A stretch of DNA of 64,000 nucleotides from the NCBI GenBank assembly GCA_028707275.1, contig JAQTUP010000002.1, positions 59,198 to 123,197 on the forward strand, read 5' to 3'. Both the position numbers and the translations under genes were made by a program. Numbering within the stretch: the stretch's first letter is position 1; every line of letters starts with the position of its first letter. Below are positions 2,158 through 29,682 of this stretch, one piece after another. The stretch is from Gallionella sp. (lineage in GTDB: Bacteria > Pseudomonadota > Gammaproteobacteria > Burkholderiales > Gallionellaceae). The notes beneath the pieces were generated by a model. It saw nothing but the letters and a program-made list of their open reading frames with translations, ran no database searches and was not told the origin of the DNA.

Positions 2158-2550
2158 TCAACGCAGAAGCGTATCTTCTATCTCATGCAGTAACAAAGGC
2201 AGTTCATTTTGGCAGTGTTTGAGGCAACCTGCCCGTTCACCGCCACAGCGCAACCCTATCGAGACACCTGTTTGCAACTTTTCCCACGCCTCGGGTGCGA
2301 TGTGTTTTCCGGCCTGCTGCCGGTTGCGCAGATAACGCGCATAGCGCGCCATGCTGCGAAAATAATGTTCCAGCCGGGGCAAGTGCACAGCACGCGCGCC
2401 GCCGAACAAGGTGTCAAATTCCTGGTGCAACTGATCCAGTTGCACGCGATCCAGCGGTACGCCGGATCGAACAATGGCGGCAGCCCGTTGCATGCGCTCA
2501 CAACAATCCTCACAAAAGGCCTGTGACAGAGCCTCAAAAATCTTATCCAT
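2158..2550 (-). CDS. Hypothetical Cys-rich 130-aa protein, translationally coupled to cheB
   Basis: The ORF overlaps the cheB start by 8 nt on the same strand. It has six Cys residues in CxxCC and CxxxxxxCxxxC spacing. No recognisable family. Confidence 0.5.
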   Translation of the reverse strand: MDKIFEALSQAFCEDCCERMQRAAAIVRSGVPLDRVQLDQLHQEFDTLFGGARAVHLPRLEHYFRSMARYARYLRNRQQAGKHIAPEAWEKLQTGVSIGLRCGGERAGCLKHCQNELPLLLHEIEDTLLR

Positions 2551-3619
2551 CCAAAAGCGCCTGTTCGCGCACCAGGCGACTCAAATAGGCGGGCAGATGA
2601 TCCAGCGCCACCACCTTGTCCACCGCATCCAGTGCAATGGCCGTGCCCGGCATGCCGTAGACGACGGCGCTCATCTCGTCCTGCACCACCGTGTGACTGC
2701 CGGCACTACGCATAGCCAACAAGCCATCCGCGCCATCCTCCCCCATGCCGGTCAGCAATACGCCGATGGCACGATGCTGACAGATCTGCGCCACCGAATT
2801 GAACATGGGGCTGACTGACGGACGAAAGCCATTGCACGGCGACGCCTGACTCAGGCACACCATCAGTCCGGATGAACCGCGACTGAGCAAAAGGTGCTGG
2901 TCGTCGGGCGCAAAATAAATTGTGCCCGCCTTGAGCGTTTCGTCCTGTTCTGCCAGCTTGACGTTGAGCTGGGTATTATCAGACAGCCAGGCTGCCAGGC
3001 CACCGACAAATCCCTTTGAGATATGTTGCGTGACAAGGATGGGCACAGGAAAATGGCCGGGCAACAGCGAAAAAATTTGCTGTAGCGCCTGCGGACCACC
3101 GGTCGAGCAGCCCATTGCCACCAGCTCATATATCTGACCGGGCTGAGGGAGGGGCGCGTCATAGATTTCAGCCTCAATCGTACGCTCGATTTTTTTCCGA
3201 CTGAACAATTTCACCTGTGACATGGCACGCACGGTATCCACCAGATCGCGGCGTATGGACTCGAAATCAGGATGGGCGAAGCCGCGCGGTTTTTCCATGA
3301 CGGCCAGCGCGCCTTCTTCTATGGCTCGAAAAGTGATGCGCAACTCTTCATCATCCACACTGGAACTGACCACCACGATAGGCACCGGATTGTCAGCCAG
3401 AATCAAACGGGTCGCCTCGAAGCCATCCATCACCGGCATGCGGATGTCCATGGTAATCACATCAGGCGTCAGATCATGTGCCATCTGCACGCCTTCCAGG
3501 CCGTTTTTGGCGTGCCCCACCACCTGCATGTCCGCCTGCTGCTCAAAGATCGCCCGAAGCAGGAGCGCTACGACCGATGAATCTTCCACGATGAGAATAC
3601 GTAACATAATTCCTTTCAA
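2543..3619 (-). CDS. cheB: Chemotaxis response regulator protein-glutamate methylesterase CheB (REC plus methylesterase)
   Basis: It has an N-terminal receiver domain (ILIVEDSSVVALLL...MDIRMPVMDG) and a C-terminal CheB methylesterase domain (IAMGCSTGGPQAL...LLTGMGEDGA). Confidence 0.9.
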   Translation of the reverse strand: MKGIMLRILIVEDSSVVALLLRAIFEQQADMQVVGHAKNGLEGVQMAHDLTPDVITMDIRMPVMDGFEATRLILADNPVPIVVVSSSVDDEELRITFRAIEEGALAVMEKPRGFAHPDFESIRRDLVDTVRAMSQVKLFSRKKIERTIEAEIYDAPLPQPGQIYELVAMGCSTGGPQALQQIFSLLPGHFPVPILVTQHISKGFVGGLAAWLSDNTQLNVKLAEQDETLKAGTIYFAPDDQHLLLSRGSSGLMVCLSQASPCNGFRPSVSPMFNSVAQICQHRAIGVLLTGMGEDGADGLLAMRSAGSHTVVQDEMSAVVYGMPGTAIALDAVDKVVALDHLPAYLSRLVREQALLDG

Positions 3620-3641: not shown

Positions 3642-5951
3642 TCAAATCAGCTGTTCCACGACGTCCAGCAATACCTTGGTTTCAAATTGACCCTTGACAA
3701 TATAGGCCTCGGCGCCAACTTCAATGCCGCGCAGCCGGTCTTCCTCGCGGGCGAGCGAGGTCACGATGATGACCGGCACCGCTTTGAGCCGCTCGCTCTG
3801 TTTAATCAGTGCGGTCAGTTCAAACCCGTTCATTTCCGGCATTTCAATATCCGTCACAACCAGATCAAATGTTTGTTCTTGCAGCATGAGCCATCCCTGA
3901 CGTCCGTTAACCGCCACACTGACCTTGTAGCCTGCATGCTCCAGGATACTTTTCTCCAGAGTACGGGTCGTAATGGAATCATCCACCACCAGCACAGACG
4001 GCACCGGAGCACTCTCGGCGCCGTCATCGCGCGGTGTGGCAAGACTTGCGCTCAACGCCGAGTCCACCAGATCCGACGGGTTGAGCACCATGATCACCTC
4101 ACCGCTGCCGGTCAGCGTGCCACCGTTGACATTACGCACTGACAGCAGGGGCGGGCGAAACGGCTTGACGACGATTTCACGCTCACCGATCACTTCATCG
4201 ACCAGAAAAGCCACACTATCCCAGCCTTTGGCCACCACGACCACAGGCATGGATTTTTTATGGCTGACTTCAGATTCGGCCAGGCTCAGGATCGCGGCCA
4301 GATCGCGCAACGGAATACTGTGCCCGCGATGCAAGATGGCATGACTGGCTTCGATTTTGATAATCTGGCAAGACTCGATCTCCATCACCTTGTCCACGGC
4401 TGATACCGGAATGGCAAACACCACCCCGCCTGCGCGTACCAGCACGCCATGCTCGGTGGCCAGCGTGATAGGCAGTCTGAGAATAAAGCGCGTACCATGC
4501 CCCTCTTCGGTTTCCAGCTGCACAGAGCCTTTGAGCTTGCGCAGATTTGCAACGACCACGTCCAGCCCCACGCCGCGTCCGGACATGCTGGTGATGATGT
4601 CACGGCTGGAAAAACCGGGACGAAAGATCAGGTTCATGATTTCCTCGCGCCCCATGGAGGCGAGCTCTGCATCGACGACCAGCTTCTTTTTGCGTGCGCA
4701 GTCCGCAATCTTTTCAGCCGAGATGCCAGCGCCATCGTCCTCTACGGTCAATACGACCTGACTGCCTTCGCTGAGAACCGAAATATGCAGACGACCCTCG
4801 GCGGGTTTACCATCCTCCAGCCTTTGTTGCGGCAATTCAATGCCGTGATCGAGCGCATTGCGCAGCAGGTGAATCAACGGGTCGCGGATACCTTCGAGCA
4901 CCATGCGATCAATTTCAATCTCGTCACCGCTGATTTCAAAATTGATTTTCTTACCCAGCTCACGCGCGATGTCCCGCACCTGGCGCGACAGCGGGCGCAG
5001 TAAACTCGCCACGGGAACCTGCCGCATCATGCGTACATTCTGCTGCAAGGATTCCACCAGCAATCCCAGACGACTGCAACTCGAACGCATTTCCCGGTGT
5101 GTCCGGGCACTGGAAGAATCAAGCTCCGCAATCGCATCTGCACTGCGCTTTTGCGCGGCAGCATCAGGGGGCGACGCCCTGTGGGGCACGACCAGCGCCT
5201 GTACACTGTTGCGCAACTGCTGCAAGGAAGCTAAATGATCGTCCATTTCAATTTTTGTGACCTGCAGCGCTTCCATCATCGCGGCCAGATTTTCGAGCTT
5301 CTCCCGGCTGATCCTCACCACCTCCGCTGACGGCCTGGCACGGGCTGACTCCGAAGTATTAACTGATTCGGCGTCTTCATCAGCGCCCGTCGGCGCGATG
5401 CGTTCGACGGGAGGTACGGCGGGCGCCATCGAAGAAGAGGCGGTTTTCTGCGTCGCATGAACGGGTAACGCATTAATGACAGCTGAATCAGCCGGTCCGG
5501 CGCCCTCCTCTGCCACTGACGTCACGGGCATCGCGGACGGCTGTTCGACGAGTGAGGCGACCTTTTCCAGTCGCAGGATCAGCCCCTCCTTGTCGAAGGA
5601 TCGCCCGGCATCAAAGGCTGCCATCGCCTGACGAATCGCGTCCATGGCTTCGAGCACAATATCGGTCACCTCCCCGTCCGGATTGCGCGACTCCCGTTTT
5701 AACACGGCAAAAATACTCTCCAGATGGTGTGCGATGTCGGATACATCATTCACTTCGACCCCGCGCGCAGCACCCTTGATATTATGCGCGGCACGAAATA
5801 CGCCTTCGAGCACCTGACGCTGCTCGTCGCCCGCCGCCCCCTTCTCCAACACCAGCAAACCATCGGTAATCACCTGGAGTTGCTCCTCCAGTTCGATGGC
5901 AAAGGTGTCCATCAGCATGCGCATCAATTCCTGATCAAATCCTAATGGCAT
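3642..5951 (-). CDS. cheA: CheA-CheY hybrid histidine kinase (Hpt, dimerisation, HATPase, CheW-like, C-terminal REC; WspE-like)
   Basis: The Hpt motif (HNIKGAARGVEV), the HATPase_c G-boxes (GRGVGLDVV), a CheW-like domain and a C-terminal receiver (VLVVDDSITTR...DIEMPEMNG) are all present. Confidence 0.9.
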   Translation of the reverse strand: MPLGFDQELMRMLMDTFAIELEEQLQVITDGLLVLEKGAAGDEQRQVLEGVFRAAHNIKGAARGVEVNDVSDIAHHLESIFAVLKRESRNPDGEVTDIVLEAMDAIRQAMAAFDAGRSFDKEGLILRLEKVASLVEQPSAMPVTSVAEEGAGPADSAVINALPVHATQKTASSSMAPAVPPVERIAPTGADEDAESVNTSESARARPSAEVVRISREKLENLAAMMEALQVTKIEMDDHLASLQQLRNSVQALVVPHRASPPDAAAQKRSADAIAELDSSSARTHREMRSSCSRLGLLVESLQQNVRMMRQVPVASLLRPLSRQVRDIARELGKKINFEISGDEIEIDRMVLEGIRDPLIHLLRNALDHGIELPQQRLEDGKPAEGRLHISVLSEGSQVVLTVEDDGAGISAEKIADCARKKKLVVDAELASMGREEIMNLIFRPGFSSRDIITSMSGRGVGLDVVVANLRKLKGSVQLETEEGHGTRFILRLPITLATEHGVLVRAGGVVFAIPVSAVDKVMEIESCQIIKIEASHAILHRGHSIPLRDLAAILSLAESEVSHKKSMPVVVVAKGWDSVAFLVDEVIGEREIVVKPFRPPLLSVRNVNGGTLTGSGEVIMVLNPSDLVDSALSASLATPRDDGAESAPVPSVLVVDDSITTRTLEKSILEHAGYKVSVAVNGRQGWLMLQEQTFDLVVTDIEMPEMNGFELTALIKQSERLKAVPVIIVTSLAREEDRLRGIEVGAEAYIVKGQFETKVLLDVVEQLI

Positions 5952-5982: not shown

Positions 5983-7518
5983 CTACAGTTTGTAAGTGCT
6001 GACGCTGTCGCGCAGCCGCTCGGCCACACGGCGCAGGTCTGCCGACGACTGCTTGCTTTGTTGCGCGGTGGTGACAAATTGCGCCGTCACTTTATTGATT
6101 TCTTTCATCGCCAGGGTCACCTGTTCGATGCCGATAAATTTTTGCCGCACTACAGCCGAAATTTGCTGGCTTGCGATGGCCGTTTCACGCACGACTTCAC
6201 CCAACTTGCGCACCACCTCCCCGCTTTTTTGCACCGACAGCATCCCGGCATCCACCCCTTTGCTGCCCTCTTCGGTGGCCATCACTGCGCGATCCGTTGC
6301 ATGCCGTATATCCTGGAGTATCTTTTGCACCTGAGCGGTCGATTGCTGCGATTGCTCCGCCAGCTCACGCACTTCGGCCGCGACGACGGCAAATCCCTTA
6401 CCTGCTTCGCCGGCTTTGGCAGCCTCAATGGAGGCATTGAGCGCCAGCATCTTGGATTGCTGGGCAAGGTTGGTCACGACAGCCGTAATTTCACCGATTT
6501 GCTGTGTCTGCTCGCTGAGCGCCAGTATGGTTTGCGCGATACCTTCGACGCGCTCGCGGATCGCTATCATACCCAAAATAGCCTGTTCTACCGCAACACT
6601 GCCTTGTTCGCTTTCGCGTCTGGCGCGTTCGGCCGACTCCCCTAACACCTGCATTTTCTCCATGGTCTGAGCCGACATGGCCTTGATTTCATCAAGCGAA
6701 GAAGTGGTTTCGTTGACCGCTGCCGCCTGTTCGGAAGCACCGGCCGACTGGCCGTTGATCGACTGCTGCAATTGCTCCAGCGTGCTGTAAATGGTATTGA
6801 TCGCCTCTGTCGTATCCGAGGCCACATGCGCCAGACTTTCTGTCATGCCATTGAGATTACTGCCCAGCTTTGCCAGATCGTCGCTGCCCACCACATCAAG
6901 CCTATGGCTCAAATCGCCCTCGGCCACGCTTGCAATGAAAGTCTGATAGGTCGCCAGTCTGGCCTCAATCTCATCTTTTGACATGCTGACCCCGTTCAGG
7001 TCAGTCATCAAACCATGTATATAGGTATCCATGGACAACTGGGAATCGATGGAGATGATCTTATGCAAGGCTTGCAAAGCCGCCTCCCGCGCACGGGCAT
7101 TCCACCGGTACTGGCGCTGGATCAACTTGACGATCTGGCAACTGTACACACTGTAACTGCCCAAATACCAGCGCGGAGTAAGACCAATTTTGTTGTGGAT
7201 CACACCGATTTTCAACCGCCGTTCAAAATAGGCGTCGCCATAATCTCCATCGAACATTTCCAGCAGATAGCGTTTCTGGGTCGTCTTGAGCCTGTCAATG
7301 TTTGAACCGGCCTCCCCGATGACATTCATCAGTTCGGTATATCGCTCGATATTGGCGTAAAAAGCATCGACAATGACGTCCGAATGCTGCTGGATAAAGG
7401 GACGCAAGGCTTTTAACGCTTGTATGTCCTGATCGCCAAAATCGACAAACTTCTTGCGCGAGGCCTGTTCGTTCGCATCAATACCCATCAACTGGGTCAG
7501 GGACTGGCTAAATTTCAT
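5983..7518 (-). CDS. Soluble globin-coupled methyl-accepting chemotaxis protein (HemAT-like heme-based sensor)
   Basis: It has no TM segments. The N-terminus is a sensor-globin fold (FYANIERYTEL..., LTPRWYLGSY). The C-terminus carries the highly conserved MCP signalling motif (LALNASIEAAKAGEAGKGFAVVAAEVRELAEQS). Confidence 0.85.
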   Translation of the reverse strand: MKFSQSLTQLMGIDANEQASRKKFVDFGDQDIQALKALRPFIQQHSDVIVDAFYANIERYTELMNVIGEAGSNIDRLKTTQKRYLLEMFDGDYGDAYFERRLKIGVIHNKIGLTPRWYLGSYSVYSCQIVKLIQRQYRWNARAREAALQALHKIISIDSQLSMDTYIHGLMTDLNGVSMSKDEIEARLATYQTFIASVAEGDLSHRLDVVGSDDLAKLGSNLNGMTESLAHVASDTTEAINTIYSTLEQLQQSINGQSAGASEQAAAVNETTSSLDEIKAMSAQTMEKMQVLGESAERARRESEQGSVAVEQAILGMIAIRERVEGIAQTILALSEQTQQIGEITAVVTNLAQQSKMLALNASIEAAKAGEAGKGFAVVAAEVRELAEQSQQSTAQVQKILQDIRHATDRAVMATEEGSKGVDAGMLSVQKSGEVVRKLGEVVRETAIASQQISAVVRQKFIGIEQVTLAMKEINKVTAQFVTTAQQSKQSSADLRRVAERLRDSVSTYKL

Positions 7519-7546: not shown

Positions 7547-8206
7547 TCAAAGAACCTGACGCTGCACGCGCAACGCCGGATCATCCATCAATGCTGCCAG
7601 ATTTAACAGCGTGACGCAGGCGTTGTGAATACCGAGTACATATTCCATATTCGTCACCCCGTTCGACATGAGAGGCGCGGACACATCAGCCTCATGATAT
7701 TTTTCGTTACCATCCACAGCATCCACCAGCAGGCCTGCGCGCATCTGGCCGTGCTTGACCACGATAATGCGCGCATCAACCCCCGACGGAACCGCTGGCA
7801 TACGAAAAAATTGTTTCAGATCCAGTATCGTCAGCAATTCGCCACGATGATTGATCACCCCGGCCACAAATGCAGGCGTGCACGGCACACGGGCAAGATG
7901 CCCCACATAGAGTAACTCTTCCAAATAAGGATAGGGGATACCATAGCGTTCCGCCCCCAGGCGAAAACGCAGGTACTGGCCCCAGGCTTCGTGCTGTGGC
8001 CCGCTCACGGGCCTGGCAATCAACTCGGCACGCGCGGCCAGCATCTTCTGAGAGGCAGCATCCTGCGGCATCAGTGCCGCTGCAAATTGAACAGGAGCCA
8101 AAACAGAAGGGCCGGGCAGCGGCATATCCCCCGCAGGCGGCGGTTCTGAATCCGGCCTGATATCCCTGGCGCCATGCGGCGGATGTTTTTTTCTGATTTT
8201 CGCCAT
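7547..8206 (-). CDS. cheW: CheW-like coupling protein with a Pro-rich N-terminal extension
   Basis: The CheW domain is in the C-terminal 150 aa (GVINHRGELLTILDL...LLVDAV). The N-terminal ~60 aa are low-complexity and Pro-rich. Confidence 0.8.
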   Translation of the reverse strand: MAKIRKKHPPHGARDIRPDSEPPPAGDMPLPGPSVLAPVQFAAALMPQDAASQKMLAARAELIARPVSGPQHEAWGQYLRFRLGAERYGIPYPYLEELLYVGHLARVPCTPAFVAGVINHRGELLTILDLKQFFRMPAVPSGVDARIIVVKHGQMRAGLLVDAVDGNEKYHEADVSAPLMSNGVTNMEYVLGIHNACVTLLNLAALMDDPALRVQRQVL

Positions 8207-8230: not shown

Positions 8231-9739
8231 TTAACGTGAAGCTCCCCGCCTGCCACTGCGGGCACTGCGGGCACTGCGGGCACTGCCGAGCATGCTGATT
8301 TCATTTTGCAAAACCTGTGCGAAACGGCTATAAGTCATTCCGCCCGCGTTGTGCAGCTTGCGTTCCGGTTCTCCTGATTGTGCAAGCTTCAGCGCCGTCC
8401 CCAGGCTTTTGATGCCCTCTGTTAAATTGCCACTTCGCACTTTTAACATGCCGATTTCATAGTGCGCTTCGAGAAATGAGCGATCCAGATACAACGCGCG
8501 GCGCAGAGCATCCTCTGCCTCCTCGATATGATCGAGCTCTGAGAGAATCAGACTCTGAATCAGGTAAGCATGTTTGTTGCCAGGATCCAGTTGCAAGCTT
8601 CGAACACAAGCTCTTTGAGCCTCGTCCAGACGCCCGAGATTCGCCAGCGCGCGGGCGCTCATTTGCCATAGCTTGCTGTTTTCATCCCCTCTCTTGCAGG
8701 CGGCTTCGACCTGCACCAGCACCGCCGACCAGTCCGCGCGATCGAATAACTCGATCAGCTCATCCATCTGTTCATCGGATTGAACAGCGGCGCTATTTTC
8801 CACGGCCATCGTCGGCGCCGGATCCGGCTCTGAATCTGACGACAGCGCCGCATCCGGACACACTCTGGCCTGGTTCGCGGACGGCGCCCCCGGTGCAGAA
8901 GCTTTGTAAAAATAACCCGCAAAGTTCGTTTGCCGCAATTCAAGTGGCGTATGCATGTATTCGACTGGGTCTGACGCGCCCAGCATCAGCACGCCACCTT
9001 CGACAAGACACGATGCATATTGCGCCATACTGCGCCTGACGGCCTCGCGATCCAGATAGATAAACACGTTGCGGCACAGGATCAGATCCATCGCATTGGT
9101 CTGCCCCAGTATCGACGGATAAACATCTGCACTCAGATTAAGGTAAGCAAAATGCGCCATCTGCCTGATCTGGCTGTGAATTTCATATTTATTCCCCGCC
9201 GGAGTAAACCAGCGCTCGCGCACCGCCTGCGGTGTCGCGCGAAAGGACCAGTCCGAATAGCGCCCGCACATCGCGCGAGCCACGACTTCACTGTTGATGT
9301 CGGTTCCCAGCAAATGGATGCGCCACTGCACAATATCCGGAATAAGCTCCAGCAACAACAAGGCCATCGTGTAGAGCTCCTGCCCCTCCGAGCATCCGGC
9401 ACTCCAGACGCGCAATGACAAATTCCCACTTGCACGCTTTGCGTCTATCATCCGGGGCAGCAACGTCTCTCGCAGCAATTCGATCTGGCAGCTGTCGCGA
9501 AAAAAATAACTCTCGCCTACTGTCACCCCTGAAATCAAATATTGAAGAGGCTCGCTCCAATCAGCAGCGCGTTGAAGCTCATCCAGATAGTGCGCCGCGT
9601 TGCGATAAAAAAAATGTGCACATCCCTTGCGCAGCGTATCGCGCAGATTGGACAACTGATGATCTTGCAGGACGATACCGGTACGCCGCGCAATCAGCCG
9701 ACAAAATGCATCTTCAAGTTCGGCGGCAAGACTATCCAT
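8231..9739 (-). CDS. cheR: CheR-type MCP methyltransferase with a C-terminal TPR domain (WspC-like)
   Basis: CheR SAM-binding motifs (ESYFFRD, RVWSAGCSEGQE, LCRNVFIYL) are followed by TPR repeats. The C-terminal tail contains a 9-mer tandem repeat encoding ARSARSARS. Confidence 0.9.
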   Translation of the reverse strand: MDSLAAELEDAFCRLIARRTGIVLQDHQLSNLRDTLRKGCAHFFYRNAAHYLDELQRAADWSEPLQYLISGVTVGESYFFRDSCQIELLRETLLPRMIDAKRASGNLSLRVWSAGCSEGQELYTMALLLLELIPDIVQWRIHLLGTDINSEVVARAMCGRYSDWSFRATPQAVRERWFTPAGNKYEIHSQIRQMAHFAYLNLSADVYPSILGQTNAMDLILCRNVFIYLDREAVRRSMAQYASCLVEGGVLMLGASDPVEYMHTPLELRQTNFAGYFYKASAPGAPSANQARVCPDAALSSDSEPDPAPTMAVENSAAVQSDEQMDELIELFDRADWSAVLVQVEAACKRGDENSKLWQMSARALANLGRLDEAQRACVRSLQLDPGNKHAYLIQSLILSELDHIEEAEDALRRALYLDRSFLEAHYEIGMLKVRSGNLTEGIKSLGTALKLAQSGEPERKLHNAGGMTYSRFAQVLQNEISMLGSARSARSARSGRRGASR

Positions 9740-9763: not shown

Positions 9764-10231
9764 TCATTGCTCGGCGCCCTGATACAGCCCGGAATTGATC
9801 AGCCAGGCCGCATCGAGCAGGAATGCCAGCCCCGTATCCGTATGCGCACAGGCACGAAACGCCGCATCATGGCGTCCCAGTTCGCCGGTAAGCTGCAAGT
9901 CCGACTCTTGCAGCATCTGAATTCCTTTAATGTCCTGAACGATGACCCCCATGCGTTTTAGCCCGTGCATGCACACCACAATAGGCGTATCCAGCGTATA
10001 AGGTAATGACGGCAGACCCAGACGAATCGCAAGATCAATCACGGGCACACTGCTGCCCGCATAATTCATGATACCCGCCACATGCGGTGCACTGCCCGGC
10101 ATGACATGCAGCGCCACAAGCGAAATAGTGCGTTCCACATACCCCAGCTCAATGCAGGCCAGCATCCCCCCCATCTTCAACACCAACACCTGGCAGTTTC
10201 CCGACAAAACCTCGTCAATATCGGCTCTCAT
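9764..10231 (-). CDS. cheW: CheW coupling protein
   Basis: A 155-aa single-domain CheW (VAGIMNYAGSSVPVIDL...IVQDI). Confidence 0.85.
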   Translation of the reverse strand: MRADIDEVLSGNCQVLVLKMGGMLACIELGYVERTISLVALHVMPGSAPHVAGIMNYAGSSVPVIDLAIRLGLPSLPYTLDTPIVVCMHGLKRMGVIVQDIKGIQMLQESDLQLTGELGRHDAAFRACAHTDTGLAFLLDAAWLINSGLYQGAEQ

Positions 10232-10234
10232 GGC

Positions 10235-11311
10235 TTAGTCCTTCGCATACCATTCCATGACCCCGCAGCCCTGAATTTCTTCCAGAACATCGACACTGCG
10301 ATCCTGACTGACTCTCTCTGGCCGCAGCAAGGCTTCGGGACGCTCGCGTACAATAGACAGAAATATTGCCATCAAAGTTGGGTCCCAAAATCCGCTGGCC
10401 GTTTCCTGCTCCATGATCTGTATGACTTTATCTCGCGGGAACGCGGGTTTATAGGGGCGTTCACTGGACAGAGCGTCAAAAATATCGACAATCTGGAACA
10501 CGCGGGCGATCAGGGGGATTTCCTCGCCTGCCAGTCCTGCCGGATAGCCCGTGCCATTCCATTTTTCATGGTGGCATCGCACGATATCGGCCGTGCGTTG
10601 CATGGTACGCAACGGGCTGCACAGCGCCGCGCCTATCACCGTATGCTGCTTCATGATCTGCCATTCCGCAGCATCCAGCGCCCCCTTCTTGAGCAGGATA
10701 TTATCCGGAATACCCAGTTTCCCGATGTCGTGCAGAACCCCGCCGCGCCGCAAGGCATCGAGTTCTTCGGCACCCATCCCCAGCGCCCGGCCAAAGACTA
10801 CCCCGGTGTGAGCCAGGCGATCGCAATGGTCTCCGGTATTGGCATCGCGCGCCTCGACCATGCGCGCCAGCGCGAACAACACCGATTTGGCGTCGTCCAG
10901 CTGGTCGGTCAAACGCTTGCGCTCGATGGCGGCCCTGACTCTTGCTGTGAGCTCGATCGAATTGAATGGCTTGGTGACATAATCGTCCGCCCCCACATCC
11001 ATCCCCCTGACCACATCGTCGGGCGACCCCAAAGACGTCACCATGATGATGGGCAACAATTTCAGGCCGAGTTCCTCGCGGATACGGCGACAGGTTTCAA
11101 AGCCGTCAAGACCTGGCATGATGACATCGAGCAACACCAGATCAAAGGCTTCGTGGCGCAACATTTCCAACGCCTGCATCCCGTCGCAGGCCTCGACGAG
11201 ATGGTATTCCGGAGGTCTCAACACATAACCCAATAGCTTGCGGTTAGTCGCCATATCATCGACGGTGAGCACTTTAGAGCCAGTCAAGGCTGATTCCGAC
11301 ACCAAACTCAT
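10235..11311 (-). CDS. Response regulator with an HD-GYP domain (c-di-GMP phosphodiesterase)
   Basis: It has an N-terminal REC (VLTVDDMATNR...LDVIMPGLDG) and a C-terminal HD-GYP domain (HDIGK, HHEKWNGTGYP). Only 3 nt separate it from the downstream cheW. Confidence 0.85.
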   Translation of the reverse strand: MSLVSESALTGSKVLTVDDMATNRKLLGYVLRPPEYHLVEACDGMQALEMLRHEAFDLVLLDVIMPGLDGFETCRRIREELGLKLLPIIMVTSLGSPDDVVRGMDVGADDYVTKPFNSIELTARVRAAIERKRLTDQLDDAKSVLFALARMVEARDANTGDHCDRLAHTGVVFGRALGMGAEELDALRRGGVLHDIGKLGIPDNILLKKGALDAAEWQIMKQHTVIGAALCSPLRTMQRTADIVRCHHEKWNGTGYPAGLAGEEIPLIARVFQIVDIFDALSSERPYKPAFPRDKVIQIMEQETASGFWDPTLMAIFLSIVRERPEALLRPERVSQDRSVDVLEEIQGCGVMEWYAKD

Positions 11312-11544: not shown

Positions 11545-13209
11545 TTATGCAGGATAGCTGGCATCGGCGAGCACCACCTGATTGCGCCCTGCATGTTTGG
11601 CTTTATACAGCGCCATATCTGCCGCATCCGTCAATCTGGATGCATTGTCAAAATTTTTCATCTCGGCCAGGCCACAGCTGAAGCTGGCTGAAAATTCCTG
11701 GTCTTTTGCCAGGTGGCGCAGTTGTGAAAAGTCATGACGAATGGCGTCCATGACTTTCATCGCGGCAGCCCCATCGGCATCGATAAGAACCACGGCAAAT
11801 TCCTCCCCCCCGTAACGCCCGACCAAATCGTTCTCGCGCAGGCGCTGTTTTAGCAGCCTGGACAGGCTCTTTATCACGCGATCGCCCACCGGATGTCCGT
11901 AGCTGTCGTTGACCTTCTTGAAGTGATCGATATCCAGCATCGCGAAGGTGATGCTCCTGGCATGCCTTTTGGCCTGGGCGATTTGACCGACCAGCTGATC
12001 CTTGATGGCGATATGGTTGAGCAACCCGGTCAGACCGTCGCGCACCATGAAAGAACGCAGCAACAAGGAGCGTTTGATCCGGCTGTTAATGGACGAGACG
12101 AGCTGATGAGCCTCGATCGACTTGGTCAGGAAGTCGTCCGCCCCCAGAACGAGCGCTGCAAGCTGCTTGTCCAGATTGGTTTCGGAGGACAAAAATACGA
12201 TGGGGATGCTGACGAAGGCGTCAATTTGCCGGATGACTTTGGCCAACTCAAGCCCGCTGCATCCGGGCATATAAATATCCACCAGAATCAGGTCAGGAGA
12301 AAAATCCTGCAATGGTCGCATCACGTCAAGCGGGTCGTTCACCACCTTGACGGACATACCGGCATGTTCGAGCACGCGGGCGTGATAATTCGACAGATTC
12401 ACATCATCATCCACGATCAAAACTCTGGGAGCCGGTGCGACTGAAGCTGAGGTCAGTTCGTCGAGCTTGTCGACCAGAACACCCAGATTCACGGGTTTCA
12501 TCAGGTAGGCCACGCCGCCTGCCCTTACCGCTTCGAGCCTTACTTCCAGCTCGCTGTGCGACGAAAGGAAAATGACCTGCAGCGGCGTCTGCCGGTTGCG
12601 TTGCAATTCCGGCATGACATGCACCCCACCCAGAGGATCCTCGGGAAAGTTGATGTCCATCAACACCACGCCCCTGGAATCCTGTCGTATGGCACGGCGA
12701 AAATCCTCCAGCGTGTAAAACAGCTTCACGTCATATTCGAAATACTTCAGCTGCGTTTTGAGTTCCCAGGCGAGCTCGCGATCATGCTCCACGACGAAAA
12801 TGCGGCGAGTGTTGCGCGCTTTCGCACGAACAGCCTTGACCGGGATTAAATTAACCTGCGCAGAACCGGGCTTGTCAGGCTGATTTGCCGCCAGGCTCAC
12901 CCCTGCGAGCAGAAGGCTCACCTTGTCGCGCTGCACCGCATTCAACTCCGTTTTTGCCTGTCCCAGAAAATAAAGATAGTTTTCCAGTTCGCGCGCCGAA
13001 TCGCTGAGCGCAGAAAAGCCAAACGTCTTGCCAGACCCCGTCAGGCCGTGCACCAGACGGTGCAAATTCAAAAACTCATCCTGATCCCAGCCTATAATTG
13101 GAAACTGGCGCCAGGACTGTTCTATCTGTTTGATTTTTTCAGGCAACTGCCCGGCATATGCCTGGCTTAACAGCTTTAGCATGAGCTGAAGTTCATTGAC
13201 CTCAGACAT
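11545..13209 (-). CDS. Hpt-REC-REC-GGDEF diguanylate cyclase response regulator
   Basis: An N-terminal Hpt-like motif (LHRLVHGLTGSGKTFG) is followed by two receiver domains and a GGDEF domain (RYGGEEFAVVL). Confidence 0.8.
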   Translation of the reverse strand: MSEVNELQLMLKLLSQAYAGQLPEKIKQIEQSWRQFPIIGWDQDEFLNLHRLVHGLTGSGKTFGFSALSDSARELENYLYFLGQAKTELNAVQRDKVSLLLAGVSLAANQPDKPGSAQVNLIPVKAVRAKARNTRRIFVVEHDRELAWELKTQLKYFEYDVKLFYTLEDFRRAIRQDSRGVVLMDINFPEDPLGGVHVMPELQRNRQTPLQVIFLSSHSELEVRLEAVRAGGVAYLMKPVNLGVLVDKLDELTSASVAPAPRVLIVDDDVNLSNYHARVLEHAGMSVKVVNDPLDVMRPLQDFSPDLILVDIYMPGCSGLELAKVIRQIDAFVSIPIVFLSSETNLDKQLAALVLGADDFLTKSIEAHQLVSSINSRIKRSLLLRSFMVRDGLTGLLNHIAIKDQLVGQIAQAKRHARSITFAMLDIDHFKKVNDSYGHPVGDRVIKSLSRLLKQRLRENDLVGRYGGEEFAVVLIDADGAAAMKVMDAIRHDFSQLRHLAKDQEFSASFSCGLAEMKNFDNASRLTDAADMALYKAKHAGRNQVVLADASYPA

Positions 13210-13621
13210 GACGTCTTTCCCAGATGGTCTGAACCTGGCCGGACAAAGTCATCGGGTCGAATGGTTTCGGGATAACGTCCAGCGCACCCAGCGCCTTATA
13301 GCCTGCGACCTCGCCCGGCTGCACCTTGGCTGTCATGAAGATCACAGGGGTCGTCGCAAATTCCGGGATTTCGCGCAGGTGAGCCAGGGTCGTCGGGCCA
13401 TCCATGCCGGGCATCATCACATCCATCAATATGAGCTGGGGTTTGAATTCGGGCGCGCGTATCAGGGCATCCTTCCCGGAACTGCATATTTCCAGCGTGT
13501 ATCCACCGACCATTTCCAGCGCCAATCTTGCCACCACCTGGATATCCGGCTCATCCTCCACATACAGCACCCGCACCAATTTTTCCGTCATACCCCTCCC
13601 TTTTCGAAATTCCCGATGCAC
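13202..13621 (-). CDS. Single-domain response regulator (CheY-like receiver)
   Basis: A 139-aa REC domain (VLYVEDEPDIQ...MDVMMPGMDG...FMTAK). Its stop overlaps the start of the downstream GGDEF gene. Confidence 0.8.
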   Translation of the reverse strand: MHREFRKGRGMTEKLVRVLYVEDEPDIQVVARLALEMVGGYTLEICSSGKDALIRAPEFKPQLILMDVMMPGMDGPTTLAHLREIPEFATTPVIFMTAKVQPGEVAGYKALGALDVIPKPFDPMTLSGQVQTIWERRHV

Positions 13622-13692: not shown

Positions 13693-15288
13693 TCATGCTT
13701 CGTCGGCACCGGCAGGGATAGGCTGTCGCCAGAGCGGAAACTCGACATAAAAAACAGTGAGCACATCGGGCTTGGAATCAAAGCCTATCTTCCCGCCCAT
13801 TTGTTCGACGATGGCGCGGGAGATGACCAGCCCAAGCCCCGTTCCGCCCTTCTTGCGCGTATCTGATGAATCAGCCTGAGAAAATTTTTGAAAAATCTGA
13901 CCGCGAAATTGCCCCGGTATGCCGCAGCCTTGATCAGATACAGAGATACGCACACGAGAGTCATCGGCGTTCACCGCCACGAGCACTTTCGCGCCTGCCG
14001 GGGAAAACTTGGCCGCATTGGAGAGCAGATTGGCCATCACCTGCAAAAACCGGTTGATATCCAAAAACAGCGTTACGTCAGATAAATCGCCTGCCAGCTC
14101 GTACGTGACCCCGAACTGTTGTGCATAGGCCATGTTGCCCTCCAGCGCCTGTTTCAACAAGGGAATCAAGCGGATGGTCTGCGGATGAAAATCCATCTTC
14201 CCCGCCTCTATCTTTTCCATATCGAGAATATCATTCACCAGCAAGATCAGGCGCTCGCAATTCTTGTAAGCGACATCGACCAGCGATTTTGCCTGAGGCG
14301 GCAACTCACCGGCGACCCCTCCTGCCATCAGGCCTAAGGATCCTCGTATCGAGGTCAAAGGAGTGCGCAATTCATGACTGACCGTCGAGATAAACTCGGC
14401 TTTCATACGCTCTATTTTGACGCGCCCGGTAATATCGCGAACGATCCTGGATGTGCCTGTAATCTTTCCATCTTCATCCAGAATAGGCGAAATACTGACC
14501 GAGACATCGACCAACTGCCCGCCTTTACTCAGGCGAACCGTTTCAAAATGTTCGATGCGTTCGCCGCGAAGAATGCGCGCAAGAATCCCTGATTCCTCAT
14601 TTTCACGACCTGGCGGGATGAGCATAGCCATCCGCTGGCCGACCGCTTCCTGTTTCGTGTATCCGAACAGAGCGACAGCGGCAGGATTCCAGGTGGTAAT
14701 GACGCCATCCAGCGTCTTGCTGATGATCGCATCCTCGGACGATGCGATGATTGAAACATAACGCGCCTGGAACAGGGCGTGTTCCGAGGCGCGCGCAAGC
14801 TGCCGCCCCCATTCGAGCTCTTCGCTCACGCATTGCGCCAGATCACGCAGCATGTTCAATTGTTCGGCGCTCACCTCGCGCGGCTGGTAATCTATCACGC
14901 ACAGCGTTCCTGCCCGCTGTCCTGTGCGCAGCGTCAGCGGATACCCGGCATAGAAGCGTATATGAGGCACACCACTCACCAGCGGATTGTCGGCAAAACG
15001 CGGATCGAGGGCGGCGTCAGGAATGAGAAAAACCCGGTCATCGAGTATGGCGTGACCACAAAAAGAGATATTGCGAGGGGTTTCAGACACTTCCAGCCCC
15101 TGACTGGATTTAAACCATTGCCGCTGACTGTCGATCAGCGAGACCAGCGCGACGGGTACGCCAAACAGATGCTGAGCCAGCCGGGTCAGGCGATCGAAAC
15201 GCTCTTCAGGTGGCGTATCGAGTATAGCCAGCGCGCGCAGCGCTGCGATACGATCTGCTTCATCAAATGGGTCGGGTGGCTCTAACAA
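13693..15288 (-). CDS. Cytoplasmic GAF-PAS sensor histidine kinase
   Basis: It has GAF and PAS domains, a HisKA H-box (STVSHELRTPLTSI) and HATPase_c (GTGLGLVISRAIVEQMGG). No TM segments. Confidence 0.85.
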   Translation of the reverse strand: MLEPPDPFDEADRIAALRALAILDTPPEERFDRLTRLAQHLFGVPVALVSLIDSQRQWFKSSQGLEVSETPRNISFCGHAILDDRVFLIPDAALDPRFADNPLVSGVPHIRFYAGYPLTLRTGQRAGTLCVIDYQPREVSAEQLNMLRDLAQCVSEELEWGRQLARASEHALFQARYVSIIASSEDAIISKTLDGVITTWNPAAVALFGYTKQEAVGQRMAMLIPPGRENEESGILARILRGERIEHFETVRLSKGGQLVDVSVSISPILDEDGKITGTSRIVRDITGRVKIERMKAEFISTVSHELRTPLTSIRGSLGLMAGGVAGELPPQAKSLVDVAYKNCERLILLVNDILDMEKIEAGKMDFHPQTIRLIPLLKQALEGNMAYAQQFGVTYELAGDLSDVTLFLDINRFLQVMANLLSNAAKFSPAGAKVLVAVNADDSRVRISVSDQGCGIPGQFRGQIFQKFSQADSSDTRKKGGTGLGLVISRAIVEQMGGKIGFDSKPDVLTVFYVEFPLWRQPIPAGADEA

Positions 15289-15346: not shown

Positions 15347-17278
15347 TCAATATTTCACCTCGTCCTTCCACATCTTTGCTTCAAAACGCACCACGCGGTT
15401 TCTCCCTGCCTCCTTGGCGTGATACATGGCAACATCGGCATATTTTACAGCCTGCCAGAAAGTATCACTGTCCAGCGGAAACTCTGAAATTCCAATGGAG
15501 ATAGTTTTTTGCAGCACTTCGCCGGGCAGCTGCACCTTCATTTTTTCAACGTCGGCGCGTATTTTTTCGGCCACTTTGTCGGTGGCCTCCCCTGTCGAGT
15601 CCTGCATAATCACGAGAAACTCCTCTCCACCATAACGTATCACAAGGTCAGCCGCGCGCACCGATGCCTGTATGGTTCTGGCCAGCGCCTTGAGAACCAG
15701 ATCCCCCGCGTCATGACCGTAGGTATCATTCACCATCTTGAAGTAATCAAGGTCGAGCATCAGCACCGAGAGCTGGCTCTTGCGACGCTGATTGGAAGCT
15801 ACCAGAGTTTCGGCGAATTCTTCCAGAAAACGGCGGTTGTGCAGACCTGTCATGGCATCGGTCAGATTGGAGGCGCGCAACGTATCCATCAGCCGCTTGG
15901 CCTCAATGACGGGTGCGGCTTCGCGCAAATAAACATTCAGATAGGGTAGAAATTCATGGATGCGTTCACCATCGTCCCGATGTGAGACCAGTTGCAGCAC
16001 GCTACCCACCATGCCCGACTGAATAATCGGAATACACACATGCACACGATCAGCCCCATCACGGTCAGATTGAAAGGCGTAACAGATTCCGGGCACGTTG
16101 ATCGAATCGATGATGTGCCCGGTGCGCCGGGCGCGACAACTTTCAGCATGAAGCAGAATTTGTGGGTCGCACCAGCGACAGGGGGCATCGATCTCGCCAT
16201 CTACCACCAGGGGCGCCATTCGACTGGTGCCCGTCACCATTTCATAGATCGAAAAATCATGGATAGCGAAGCGTTCCTGCAAAACCGATGACAGTCGCCG
16301 GTATATTTCCGGCTTGGTTTCATCCTCTTCGATCGCCTGCTTGAAATGCGCGGCCTCAATCAGTCCGGCGACGCGACTGATCGTGGAATTGAGCAAATTC
16401 TCATGCTCGTGTGTCGGCGTTTGCTGCAAAAGTTGTGCGACATCCTGGCTGATGGTTGTCAGTCCATTTTGAATGAATTTCAGCAGACTGTTCAAGTCCG
16501 CCGCAACCTGCCCTATTTCATCATCGGTACGTCGCTCGATATTGGCATGAAAATCCCCCTGAATGGCGCGTTCAACGGTCTCCTGCACATCGCGCGCGGT
16601 GACGATCACAGGTTTGACCAGCCGCCGGAAAAACCACAGCATCACCAGCATAAACGAAACGATTGCCAGCACCATGACAGACGAAGTCATGTAGGCACTG
16701 CGCATCATCTCGCTCATGGACATCGTAATCGTAATCACGCCCAGCACTGTCCCTTCCGCTACATTGTGGCATTGCAGGCAGTTGATATGTCCGGCACGAG
16801 TGGCAATATAGGGCAGCGTGCCGCGAAAGGCCAGTCCGTCGTTTTCGTCGATCAGTTTATAGTAAGCCTGTCCGTCCTGCATGACCTGCGCCTCAATTTT
16901 GTCCCTGATTTGAACTCGTTTCGAGTCCTTGCCAAACTGTGCGGCAACGCTGTCAGAGCGGATCACCCTGACTGTACGCATTCCTTCCACAGAGGCCAGA
17001 TGACCCAGAAAATCATCCCGATTTTCTGCAGAATTGTGCAGCATGGATTCACTAAGACTGATGCCGACAATATCGGCAATTGAACGGATATGCTCACGCT
17101 CGGTTGTAATGGTGAATTGGCGAAATGACAGAAAACTCACCACCACGACGACCACGATCATGGACAGGGTTATTACAATGGAAAAGGTCGTAACTTTGGT
17201 ATCGAGTTTCATTCTGGCAACCCTAAAAAGTCTTTTTGAATTAACTCTGACGTATTGTGACATAACAGATGGCTGCAT
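15347..17278 (-). CDS. Membrane sensor diguanylate cyclase with a periplasmic CxxCH (heme c) motif, HAMP, a Cys-rich cytoplasmic domain and GGDEF
   Basis: Two TM helices bracket a ~140-aa periplasmic domain containing CLQCH. The cytoplasmic part has HAMP and a GGDEF domain (RYGGEEFLVIM). The start codon is uncertain, and an internal Met at 17212 is possible. Confidence 0.8.
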   Translation of the reverse strand: MQPSVMSQYVRVNSKRLFRVARMKLDTKVTTFSIVITLSMIVVVVVVSFLSFRQFTITTEREHIRSIADIVGISLSESMLHNSAENRDDFLGHLASVEGMRTVRVIRSDSVAAQFGKDSKRVQIRDKIEAQVMQDGQAYYKLIDENDGLAFRGTLPYIATRAGHINCLQCHNVAEGTVLGVITITMSMSEMMRSAYMTSSVMVLAIVSFMLVMLWFFRRLVKPVIVTARDVQETVERAIQGDFHANIERRTDDEIGQVAADLNSLLKFIQNGLTTISQDVAQLLQQTPTHEHENLLNSTISRVAGLIEAAHFKQAIEEDETKPEIYRRLSSVLQERFAIHDFSIYEMVTGTSRMAPLVVDGEIDAPCRWCDPQILLHAESCRARRTGHIIDSINVPGICYAFQSDRDGADRVHVCIPIIQSGMVGSVLQLVSHRDDGERIHEFLPYLNVYLREAAPVIEAKRLMDTLRASNLTDAMTGLHNRRFLEEFAETLVASNQRRKSQLSVLMLDLDYFKMVNDTYGHDAGDLVLKALARTIQASVRAADLVIRYGGEEFLVIMQDSTGEATDKVAEKIRADVEKMKVQLPGEVLQKTISIGISEFPLDSDTFWQAVKYADVAMYHAKEAGRNRVVRFEAKMWKDEVKY

Positions 17279-29475: not shown

Positions 29476-29611
29476 ATCGATAGAGCGCTATCCGAAAAGA
29501 TATCTAATTCTACTGCGAAACCATGCCAGACATATACCACGAAAATTATCATCCAGAAAATAACCATAATTATCAATTAGATGTAAAATTTATGGATTGC
29601 ATCAGCTTTGC

Positions 29612-29627
29612 TGGCACAGCGATTGCA
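29612..29627 (+). promoter_or_regulatory. Sigma-54 (RpoN) -24/-12 promoter for rtcB
   Basis: TGGCAC-N5-TTGCA matches the consensus exactly, about 55 nt upstream of the rtcB ATG and divergent from rtcR. Confidence 0.7.
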
Positions 29628-29682
29628 ATGTAACCGGTACGCAGCAGAGATACCGAATAACAAAAATACCAGAGGTTGAACA

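Follow-up and report, generated by a model that had tools for sequence, protein, structure and literature searches.

We analyzed a 64,000-nt stretch of a Gallionella sp. genome (contig JAQTUP010000002.1; this whole stretch is hereafter called the window), in which a minus-strand gene at 5983–7518 encodes a soluble chemoreceptor, i.e., a methyl-accepting chemotaxis protein (MCP) whose N-terminal domain is a sensor globin. This gene lies in the middle of a run of che genes that begins with a gene for a predicted cyclic di-GMP (c-di-GMP) phosphodiesterase. Our data suggest that the globin-coupled MCP is the dedicated cytoplasmic receptor for a gas, likely O2, in a non-flagellar Che pathway whose output is c-di-GMP turnover, and we assign this reading a probability of about 0.68. 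The evidence comes from the fold and pocket of the globin, from the composition of the che module around it, and from the conserved association of this module with genes for c-di-GMP enzymes in other proteobacteria.

Architecture of the receptor

The open reading frame (ORF) at 5983–7518 starts with ATG, and a GGAGA Shine-Dalgarno sequence is located 6 nt upstream of it. The 511-aa product is 100% identical to GenBank entry MDD4928410.1, a "protoglobin domain-containing protein" from a Gallionella sp. metagenome-assembled genome (MAG); the window thus derives from a microaerophilic betaproteobacterium that oxidizes iron. The gene and its domains are as follows.

5983–7518, minus strand: soluble globin-coupled MCP, 511 aa (ORF; Pfam Protoglobin, HAMP and MCPsignal)
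7012–7470, minus strand: sensor-globin domain, residues 17–169 (Pfam; phmmer against HemAT-Bs; AlphaFold2 and Foldseek)
6823–6978, minus strand: HAMP domain, residues ~181–232 (Pfam; AlphaFold2 helices; alignment with the HAMP domain of Tsr)
5986–6822, minus strand: 40-heptad MCP signaling domain, residues 233–511 (position of the tip; alignment with Tsr)

A previous sequence-only reading of this DNA described a soluble 511-aa MCP without a transmembrane segment, in which a globin is fused to the signaling domain, and proposed searches with the Protoglobin and MCPsignal models as well as a heptad count. The ORF was confirmed and no transmembrane segment was found: the highest 19-residue Kyte-Doolittle mean of the protein is 0.99, compared with 2.3–2.9 for the MscS-like and membrane GGDEF proteins encoded nearby. 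Both Pfam models matched, Protoglobin (PF11563) at residues 17–169 (E=8.7e-44, 149.7 bits against a cutoff of 25, profile positions 4–155 of 158) and MCPsignal at residues 294–478 (E=1e-35). The proposed fusion is therefore real, with the refinement that a genuine HAMP domain (residues 196–229, 27.4 bits against a cutoff of 25) is present between the globin and the signaling domain.

The same reading called the protein the sole receptor of the che cluster. This is correct for the window, as a tblastn search over the six frames of the 64 kb detected no second MCP signaling domain or globin, and Pfam surveys of the other large ORFs detected no further MCP or che gene. It is not correct for the family as a whole, since sister clusters hold one to three extra MCP genes.

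A HemAT-type sensor globin

The closest PDB sequence to the N-terminal 190 residues was the sensor domain of HemAT-Bs (1or4, E=1e-25), followed by an Anaeromyxobacter globin-coupled histidine kinase, a cyanobacterial globin, a Geobacter globin-coupled sensor (GCS) and a globin-coupled anti-anti-sigma factor. In the phmmer alignment with HemAT-Bs, Tyr54, Leu77, Thr80, His108, Trp117 and Tyr118 correspond to Tyr70, Leu92, Thr95, His123, Trp132 and Tyr133, respectively. Tyr54 is thus located at position B10 (codon at nt 7357–7359), Thr80 at E11 and His108 at F8 (codon at nt 7195–7197), with Trp117 and Tyr118 on helix G. Tyr70, Thr95 and His123 are the O2-binding core of HemAT-Bs, according to a 2026 review of aerotaxis (PMC13401364). 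His86 of HemAT is replaced by Ala70 in the window globin.

We modeled residues 1–240 with AlphaFold2 using an alignment of 16 family members (predicted local distance difference test score, pLDDT, of 84). The best Foldseek match of the model was again the HemAT-Bs sensor 1or4, with a root-mean-square deviation (rmsd) of 1.1–1.2 Å over 148 residues and 34% identity. Over HemAT-Bs, AfGcHK and GsGCS together, the rmsd was 1.1–2.0 Å and the target-normalized TM score 0.83–0.94, which corresponds to the 3-on-3 sensor-globin fold; protoglobins, BpeGReg and DosC ranked well behind these proteins. In the same model, helices 181–199 (AS1) and 214–239 (AS2) form the helix-connector-helix arrangement of a HAMP domain. 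The N-terminal domain is therefore a HemAT-type sensor globin, as the sequence-only reading had claimed on the basis of the motifs FYANIERY (residues 53–60) and RWYLGSY (residues 116–122), both of which are present. Its reference to distal and proximal histidines was half right: His108 is the proximal histidine, whereas the distal residue is not a histidine but Tyr54.

Phe53 (B9), Tyr54 and His108 are invariant among 99 full-length relatives, and Leu77, Gln81, Tyr84, Trp117 and Tyr118 are kept in at least 96 of them. These data bear on a different view of the domain, namely that it is a degenerate, heme-free fold used for dimerization or as a scaffold, with regulation mainly by methylation or by the neighboring kinases. 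Atu1027, another globin-coupled MCP, likewise has no direct evidence of heme binding (PMC13401364). However, the invariance of the proximal histidine, B10 tyrosine and B9 phenylalanine, the retention of the Trp117/Tyr118 pair, and the superposition of the predicted fold on heme-bound HemAT at 1.1 Å all speak against a heme-free domain, which we regard as highly improbable. The protein is predicted to be a heme-based gas sensor, and its pocket residues suggest that O2 is the most likely ligand.

HAMP and signaling domains

The tip motif EAAKAGE begins at residue 365, which places the tip of the hairpin at Glu371. The C-terminus lies 140 residues (20 heptads) beyond this residue, and the HAMP domain ends ~139 residues before it. 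Alignment with E. coli Tsr, a 36-heptad (36H) receptor, revealed 14 additional residues in each arm. The heptad count and the comparison with Tsr thus place the signaling domain in class 40H, with 20 heptads per arm. Among the 53 relatives with a detected tip motif, 42 have the same tip-to-end distance of 140 residues. Class 40H is that of the WspA orthologue and of many Pseudomonas receptors (PMC11253619).

Candidate methylation sites were located by the register of Tsr and are Q263, E270, E277 and Q487. Among the 99 relatives, Glu and Gln occur at these positions in 55 and 44 (residue 263), 79 and 20 (residue 270), 74 and 24 (residue 277), and 9 and 77 (residue 487) sequences. Judged from the alignment, this alternation of Glu and Gln is the usual signature of sites targeted by CheR and CheB. 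No C-terminal pentapeptide was found on the globin-MCP; the CheR of the cluster bears a TPR domain instead.

The che gene run

The receptor gene is flanked by seven other genes of the run, all on the minus strand, which are listed here in the order of transcription (REC, receiver domain; Hpt, histidine phosphotransfer domain; P1, the Hpt-type domain of CheA).

10235–11311, minus strand: REC-HD-GYP response regulator, predicted c-di-GMP phosphodiesterase, first gene of the run (Pfam Response_reg and HD_5)
9764–10231, minus strand: CheW, 155 aa (Pfam CheW, E=4e-24; syntenic in all related loci)
8231–9739, minus strand: CheR with C-terminal TPR, 502 aa (Pfam CheR, E=7e-44; TPR repeats at residues 350–460)
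7547–8206, minus strand: second CheW, 219 aa, with a Pro-rich N-terminal extension (Pfam CheW, E=2e-27, residues 77–209)
3642–5951, minus strand: CheA-REC hybrid kinase, 769 aa (Pfam Hpt, HATPase_c, CheW and Response_reg)
2543–3619, minus strand: CheB methylesterase, 358 aa (Pfam CheB_methylest, E=1e-58, plus REC)
2158–2550, minus strand: stand-alone CheA-P1/Hpt-like protein, 130 aa, overlapping cheB by 8 nt (Pfam Hpt, 23.4 bits against a cutoff of 24.6)

The globin-MCP gene is located between the second cheW and cheA. The CheA-REC protein consists of an Hpt/P1 domain with the motif AAHNIKG, a HATPase domain, a CheW-like P5 domain and a C-terminal receiver. In NCBIfam, the module proteins gave generic MCP, CheA, CheB and CheR matches only, among which that of CheB alone was above its cutoff (341 bits against 293), and no specific model was found for any of them.

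From the REC-HD-GYP gene, which ends 3 nt before cheW, to the gene for the P1-like protein, neighboring genes are separated by at most 31 nt or overlap. Judged solely by these short gaps, the eight genes are probably co-transcribed as one unit. A scan for consensus promoters and terminators over 1.8–17.6 kb gave counts equal to those in shuffled sequence and defined no operon boundaries. Pfam searches found no CheZ, CheV, CheD or flagellar genes in the 64 kb, where the other large ORFs belong to housekeeping functions, mobile elements or defence. The GC content across the che cluster is 0.54–0.58, like that of most of the window, and acquisition of the cluster as a horizontally transferred island was rejected on this ground.

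The P1-like protein encoded after cheB has orthologues 3' of cheB in Gallionella, Sulfuricella, Chromatiaceae, Magnetococcus and Mariprofundus (e.g., at 15572–15985 of locus L003 and 10820–11242 of locus L006), and 43 homologues in databases, nearly all of them annotated as "hypothetical". Its AlphaFold2 model (pLDDT 89.5) consists of five helices, and the best fold match was the P1 domain of CheA (1i5n), with a TM score of 0.72–0.75 and a weak E value of 0.07. In register with the H-S-I-K-G-G-A motif of CheA, the family has D-T-L-F-G-G-A, so that an invariant Asp46 occupies the position of the phosphorylated histidine. His42, one helical turn before Asp46, is at least 90% conserved and is replaced by Tyr in two Gallionella sequences. 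The protein may be an undescribed accessory component of such Che modules, and it may act in phosphate relay, as a mimic of phosphorylated P1, or as a regulator of CheA.

c-di-GMP enzymes beside the module

In the REC-HD-GYP protein, the motifs HD194 and HHEKWNGTGYP are intact, and its PDB matches are HD-GYP enzymes (5z7c, 4mcw and 4r8z). The top NCBIfam match of the HD-GYP domain was a c-di-GMP phosphodiesterase family. This predicted phosphodiesterase is most likely the direct output of the module in the window. Further genes related to c-di-GMP are present upstream of the run.

11545–13209, minus strand: Hpt-REC-REC-GGDEF diguanylate cyclase, 554 aa (Pfam and motifs; PDB matches DgcR, PleD and WspR)
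13202–13621, minus strand: single-domain receiver, 139 aa (Pfam Response_reg, 79.6 bits)
13693–15288, minus strand: cytoplasmic GAF-PAS histidine kinase, 531 aa (Pfam GAF, PAS, HisKA and HATPase_c)
15347–17278, minus strand: membrane-anchored GGDEF protein, 643 aa (Pfam GGDEF, E=1e-47; two hydrophobic segments)

Both cyclases contain the GGEEF motif and an RxxD I-site located five residues upstream of it. The gene for the Hpt-REC-REC-GGDEF cyclase lies 233 nt upstream of the che run. A trio of histidine kinase, receiver and Hpt-REC-REC-GGDEF genes also adjoins the globin che module of Rhodocyclaceae locus L007 (17901–21545), on the opposite side, and the 139-aa receiver of the window is 50% identical to its counterpart there. 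Because the cyclase is accompanied by its own kinase and receiver, and because the trio recurs in L007, we read it as a separate His-Asp-His-Asp relay, of which the GAF-PAS kinase is the probable head. The cyclase is more probably the end of a separate histidine kinase-REC-Hpt relay, and the recurrence of the trio suggests that this second relay travels with the module and converges on c-di-GMP. Beside the upstream GGDEF gene, at 17441–18370 (plus strand), fragments of an IS66-family element were observed (TnpB_IS66, zf-IS66 and a C-terminal piece of DDE, in short ORFs), which appear to be a decayed insertion sequence.

Occurrence of the module in other genomes

Related loci were gathered by exact protein look-up and by a genome scan with a six-sequence alignment of the globin and HAMP region, and the window proteins were mapped onto them by tblastn. 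Receptors of the same architecture (~513 aa, 45–87% identical) occur in Gallionella, Rhodocyclaceae, Methylospira mobilis, Mariprofundus, Magnetococcus marinus MC-1 and Magnetofaba, and also in Chromatiales, Legionellales, Spartinivicinus and Paraburkholderia caballeronis. The gene order CheW-CheR-CheW-globin-MCP-CheA(REC)-CheB was found in all 26 distinct loci that contained a close relative. These loci span Beta-, Gamma-, Zeta- and Magnetococcus-type Proteobacteria, and iron oxidizers, methanotrophs and sulfur oxidizers are among the carriers.

In 22 of the 26 loci, a gene for a GGDEF or HD-GYP protein was located no more than 2.5 kb from the module, and two others were on contigs too short to judge. 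The module is immediately preceded by the REC-HD-GYP gene in 16 loci, an arrangement seen in Gallionella, Sulfuricella, Rhodocyclaceae, Zetaproteobacteria, Chromatiales and Oceanospirillum. In Paraburkholderia, Ectothiorhodospiraceae and Mariprofundus, the gene directly after cheB encodes a WspR-like REC-GGDEF protein, and the Mariprofundus version has both enzymes. The Magnetococcus version has a divergent REC-PAS-GGDEF-EAL gene, and in the Methylospira and Rhodocyclaceae versions, genes for REC, CheC/CheX-like and PAS-GGDEF proteins follow cheB. The placement of a globin receptor in a c-di-GMP pathway, which had been proposed from the window alone, is thus matched by a linkage that is conserved over proteobacterial classes and does not reflect a chance juxtaposition in this genome.

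Remote matches, a globin of Nitrospirae (37% identity) and a globin-MCP of Hyphomicrobiales (29%), were not accompanied by the module. A census based on the globin domain alone yielded 3,939 sensor-globin clusters (50% identity, E≤0.001), only 28 of which matched at E≤1e-30, indicating a compact subfamily. No member of this globin-MCP family was found in a plasmid collection, whose best full-length matches were haloarchaeal and Roseibium proteins annotated as "globin-coupled sensor protein" (27–28% identity).

Several variants were observed among the relatives. In four loci of Sulfuricella and Gallionella MAGs (L012, L015, L017 and L030), the globin-MCP gene and cheA are separated by one to three extra genes for MCPs. 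The extra MCPs are ~740 aa long, have two HAMP domains, and share 66–79% identity with the globin-MCP in the signaling domain; in these relatives the pathway is evidently able to integrate more inputs. In L017, genes for a ParA/MinD-like ATPase and for a PAS histidine kinase are also inserted in the module. Some globin-MCPs, ~614–645 aa long, form a subgroup with an additional C-terminal chemoreceptor zinc-binding (CZB) domain (PF13682), and one member comes from a Gallionellaceae MAG; these CZB-bearing homologues (P0072, P0099, P0106, P0111, P0114 and P0118–P0120) would have two cytoplasmic sensor domains. Finally, a HAMP-MCP on a 138-kb Legionella anisa plasmid (NZ_CP082853.1, 8092–9951; locus L034) is 48% identical to the window receptor in the HAMP and signaling region; it stands by itself among genes for heavy-metal efflux and for a small response regulator, with no che genes nearby.

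Proposed mechanism and alternative explanations

The analysis establishes the domain composition, the predicted fold, the conserved residues of the pocket and of the methylation sites, the solubility, the heptad count, and the gene linkage with its conservation. That the globin binds heme, which gas it senses, in which direction the signal acts, which proteins receive phosphate from CheA and what phenotype results are those parts of the proposed pathway that we infer. O2 would bind the Fe(II) heme held by His108 and would be stabilized by Tyr54 and Thr80. The resulting change would be relayed via HAMP into the 40-heptad four-helix bundle, whose tip, together with the two CheW proteins, would control the CheA-REC hybrid kinase. 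Phosphorylated CheA would then phosphorylate the receiver of the HD-GYP phosphodiesterase, whose gene is probably co-transcribed, as well as CheB. It may also reach the GGDEF relay, possibly via its own receiver and the P1/Hpt-like proteins, and the CheA receiver could feed the Hpt domain of the Hpt-REC-REC-GGDEF protein. Methylation and demethylation of Q263, E270, E277 and Q487 by CheR-TPR and CheB would provide adaptation, such that the pathway would report a change in O2 and not its absolute level. The outcome would be a c-di-GMP level that depends on the change in O2 and governs the choice between sessile and motile life in a microaerophilic iron oxidizer. With a phosphodiesterase as the linked output, activity of the kinase should lower the c-di-GMP level, a sign opposite to that of WspR.

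Several observations weigh against this scheme. The residue at E11 varies among the 99 relatives (Thr in 48, Ala in 36, Ser in 9 and Val in 4), and ligand tuning may therefore differ from member to member. Among PDB sequences, the HD-GYP domain best matches the 3'3'-cGAMP phosphodiesterase 5z7c, with c-di-GMP enzymes after it, which makes the nucleotide uncertain. The Hpt-REC-REC-GGDEF cyclase, given its separation from the che run and its own kinase and receiver genes, may not be a target of CheA. Two of the 24 loci that could be judged (L014 and L024) have no gene for a c-di-GMP enzyme nearby. In addition, flagellar F6 systems use 40H receptors as well (PMC11253619), and the receptor might engage in cross-talk with a flagellar array encoded elsewhere.

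The first two of these observations touch on the possibility that the architecture is as described but that the signal is NO, CO or the redox state of the heme, or that the nucleotide is other than c-di-GMP. Sensor globins are reported to bind O2, NO and CO, and some to act by a change in redox state (PMC8076648); the frequent Ala at E11 and the replacement of HemAT His86 in the window globin are compatible with such a signal. On the other hand, the full set of O2-stabilizing residues of HemAT (Tyr at B10, Thr at E11 and the equivalent of Tyr133) is kept in the window receptor, and the carriers are mostly organisms of oxic-anoxic interfaces, which include magnetotactic bacteria in addition to the iron, methane and sulfur oxidizers. 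With regard to the nucleotide, the match to the cGAMP-specific enzyme is countered by the GGDEF genes that accompany the module and by the NCBIfam assignment of the HD-GYP domain. We give this alternative, in either form, a small but real chance.

The receptor might also be an ordinary aerotaxis transducer of the HemAT type, which joins or cross-talks with flagellar arrays, and the c-di-GMP genes would then be mere neighbors. All validated globin-MCPs (HemAT-Bs, HemAT-Hs, GCS-Bh and Atu1027) mediate aerotaxis (PMC13401364), and the use of 40H receptors by F6 systems points in the same direction. Moreover, the relatives of Gallionella are motile gradient organisms with many MCPs (PMC3770913), and a single-domain REC protein is encoded near the module. 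However, the receptor gene is situated amid a complete che module that has a CheA-REC and is devoid of CheZ, CheV, CheD and flagellar genes; this placement is kept in every one of the 26 loci, with REC-coupled GGDEF or HD-GYP genes adjacent in 22. The one remote globin-MCP that was recovered without che neighbors (locus L032) is 29% identical to the window protein. An aerotaxis transducer is thus unlikely, and a dedicated receptor for c-di-GMP turnover accounts better for the arrangement of these genes.

Other features of the window

At 23095–25170, 34341–35363 and 35753–37600 (all minus strand), we observed genes for an AAA_21/AbiEii-like ATPase, an rve-family integrase and a GmrSD-type restriction endonuclease, respectively. 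The GC content falls to 0.41 at 36–38 kb, compared with ~0.56 elsewhere, and this region is probably a mobile or defence islet. A divergent pair at 27880–30909, RtcR (a sigma-54 activator, minus strand) and the RNA ligase RtcB (plus strand), represents an RNA-repair operon. The ORF at 56478–57674 (plus strand, 398 aa) has an N-terminal match to Peptidase_M48 and a weak C-terminal match to pilin, an unusual combination; it is possible that it is a mis-joined ORF or a fusion.

Implications

It is conceivable, at somewhat less than even odds, that the module with its REC-HD-GYP and REC-GGDEF partners and the degenerate P1-like protein represents a distinct and widespread chemosensory class, which provides c-di-GMP signaling with a methylation-based memory of O2. 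If so, microaerophiles living in gradients would choose between attachment, stalk or biofilm formation, and swimming according to the rise or fall of O2 and not to its absolute level. One pathway would then combine direct sensing of O2, temporal comparison by methylation and control of sessility. This would also be the first role of a globin-coupled chemoreceptor outside motility: the characterized globin chemoreceptors all steer swimming, and the characterized globins that act on c-di-GMP are all one-component enzymes without adaptation. The carriers inhabit narrow O2 gradients, in which holding position is critical, and the module bears on the question of how O2 sensing is connected to stalk and biofilm formation in iron oxidizers. 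For neither Wsp nor Che3 is a chemical input known, and a homologous module with a ligand that can be set by the experimenter would be a tractable model. Cultivable carriers include Paraburkholderia caballeronis, Magnetococcus marinus MC-1, Methylospira mobilis and Spartinivicinus poritis.

Comparison with known systems

The sequence-only reading had described the pathway as Wsp-like. This applies to its make-up: like Wsp, it is apparently a non-motility system with a single 40H receptor, two CheW proteins, CheR, CheA-REC, CheB and a REC-coupled c-di-GMP enzyme encoded adjacently. It does not apply to gene order and receptor topology. Wsp is defined by the synteny of wspA-F and was found only in Beta- and Gammaproteobacteria (Kessler et al., PMC8552884), whereas the window module has the order W-R-W-MCP-A-B, in which the receptor gene is fourth and not first, and extends to Zetaproteobacteria and Magnetococcus. 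WspA is anchored in the membrane, has a four-helix-bundle domain in the periplasm and responds to growth on surfaces (PMC8846402); the receptor described here is a cytoplasmic globin protein. The output encoded in the window is an HD-GYP protein and not a terminal REC-GGDEF protein, which is present in the Paraburkholderia, Ectothiorhodospiraceae and Mariprofundus versions. Gene content and CheA architecture nevertheless suggest a module of Wsp-like make-up, probably in the alternative cellular function (ACF) category. A CheA with a receiver is tied to the ACF and F3 categories (bioRxiv 10.1101/2022.05.07.491037).

In a protein search of annotated plasmids and chromids, a cluster of Azospirillum ramasamyi was found to have the same order and architectures (CheW, CheR with TPR, CheW, MCP, CheA-REC and CheB), followed by genes for a receiver and a hybrid kinase. 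Its CheR, MCP signaling domain, CheA and CheB are 29–38% identical to the window proteins, whereas the ~230-residue N-terminus of its MCP is unrelated to the globin. From its gene content, we infer that this cluster is the orthologue of che3 of Rhodospirillum centenum, a system for cyst formation that its authors class as ACF, in which CheA3-REC phosphorylates the receiver of the neighboring kinase CheS3 and the signal of MCP3 was reported as unknown (PMC3868531). This phosphorylation is a precedent for the transfer from CheA-REC to a neighboring receiver that is proposed here. The papers on R. centenum do not say which sensor domain MCP3 has. The output of Che3 consists of the hybrid kinase CheS3 and CheY3 and leads to encystment; in contrast, the window module is flanked by c-di-GMP enzymes, and no CheS3-like gene follows cheB in the window.

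With HemAT-Bs of Bacillus subtilis (PDB 1or4 and 1or6), HemAT-Hs, GCS-Bh and Atu1027, the window receptor shares a soluble sensor globin and an MCP domain, and it is especially close to HemAT-Bs, with 34% identity in the globin, superposition at 1.1 Å, the same His/Tyr/Thr set and the G-helix Trp and Tyr. These known globin-MCPs feed flagellar aerotaxis, whereas the present receptor has a HAMP domain and a 40H bundle and is found inside a dedicated CheA-REC module. Globins that control c-di-GMP directly are also known: EcDosC, BpeGReg and HemDGC are gas-responsive one-component enzymes (PMC8846402), and a GCS-HD-GYP fusion was characterized in Vibrio fluvialis (PMC10882959). In all of these the globin is fused to the enzyme and there is no adaptation, while in the pathway proposed here a kinase cascade, methylation and several receivers would stand between sensor and enzyme. 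The window globin is also nearer to HemAT than to DosC and BpeGReg (Foldseek ranks 1–4 versus 22–49).

Aer2/McpB of Pseudomonas aeruginosa and Vibrio cholerae is likewise a soluble heme-based O2 sensor with HAMP domains and the dedicated receptor of a non-canonical che cluster. It differs from the window receptor in that its heme is bound by a PAS domain and its cluster is of the F7 type with a CheY; we know of no c-di-GMP output of Aer2. A cytoplasmic globin-containing MCP within a che cluster that lacks CheY was described in silico in Corallococcus coralloides (Cc-5; PMC6194562). Unlike the window module, Cc-5 has a receptor with both PAS and globin domains, was interpreted as a system for aerotaxis or energy taxis, and is without c-di-GMP enzymes.

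In the literature covered, which left most subscription journals outside its scope, no paper was found that places a globin-MCP in a Wsp-, Che3- or ACF-type c-di-GMP pathway. A review of c-di-GMP sensing treats globins solely as one-component cyclases and phosphodiesterases and gives Wsp, with its membrane receptor, as the example of an ACF system (PMC8846402). Comparative genomics of Gallionella and Sideroxydans covered truncated hemoglobins and hemerythrins and not this receptor (PMC3770913), a pan-genome study of stalk formation in Zetaproteobacteria reported a general enrichment of c-di-GMP genes with no mention of CheA or this cluster (PMC8250860), a paper on c-di-GMP in Acidithiobacillus caldus has globins in its references only, and a Halomonas paper mentions neither HemAT nor globins. 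The parts of the system are all of known kinds; it is their combination, conserved and apparently undescribed, that is new. Precedents exist both for soluble heme receptors in non-flagellar che clusters and for c-di-GMP enzymes under the control of a globin, and this combination would therefore not astonish a specialist. The module is best described as sharing its gene order with the Che3-like cluster of Azospirillum, with the sensor swapped for a globin and the output for c-di-GMP enzymes.

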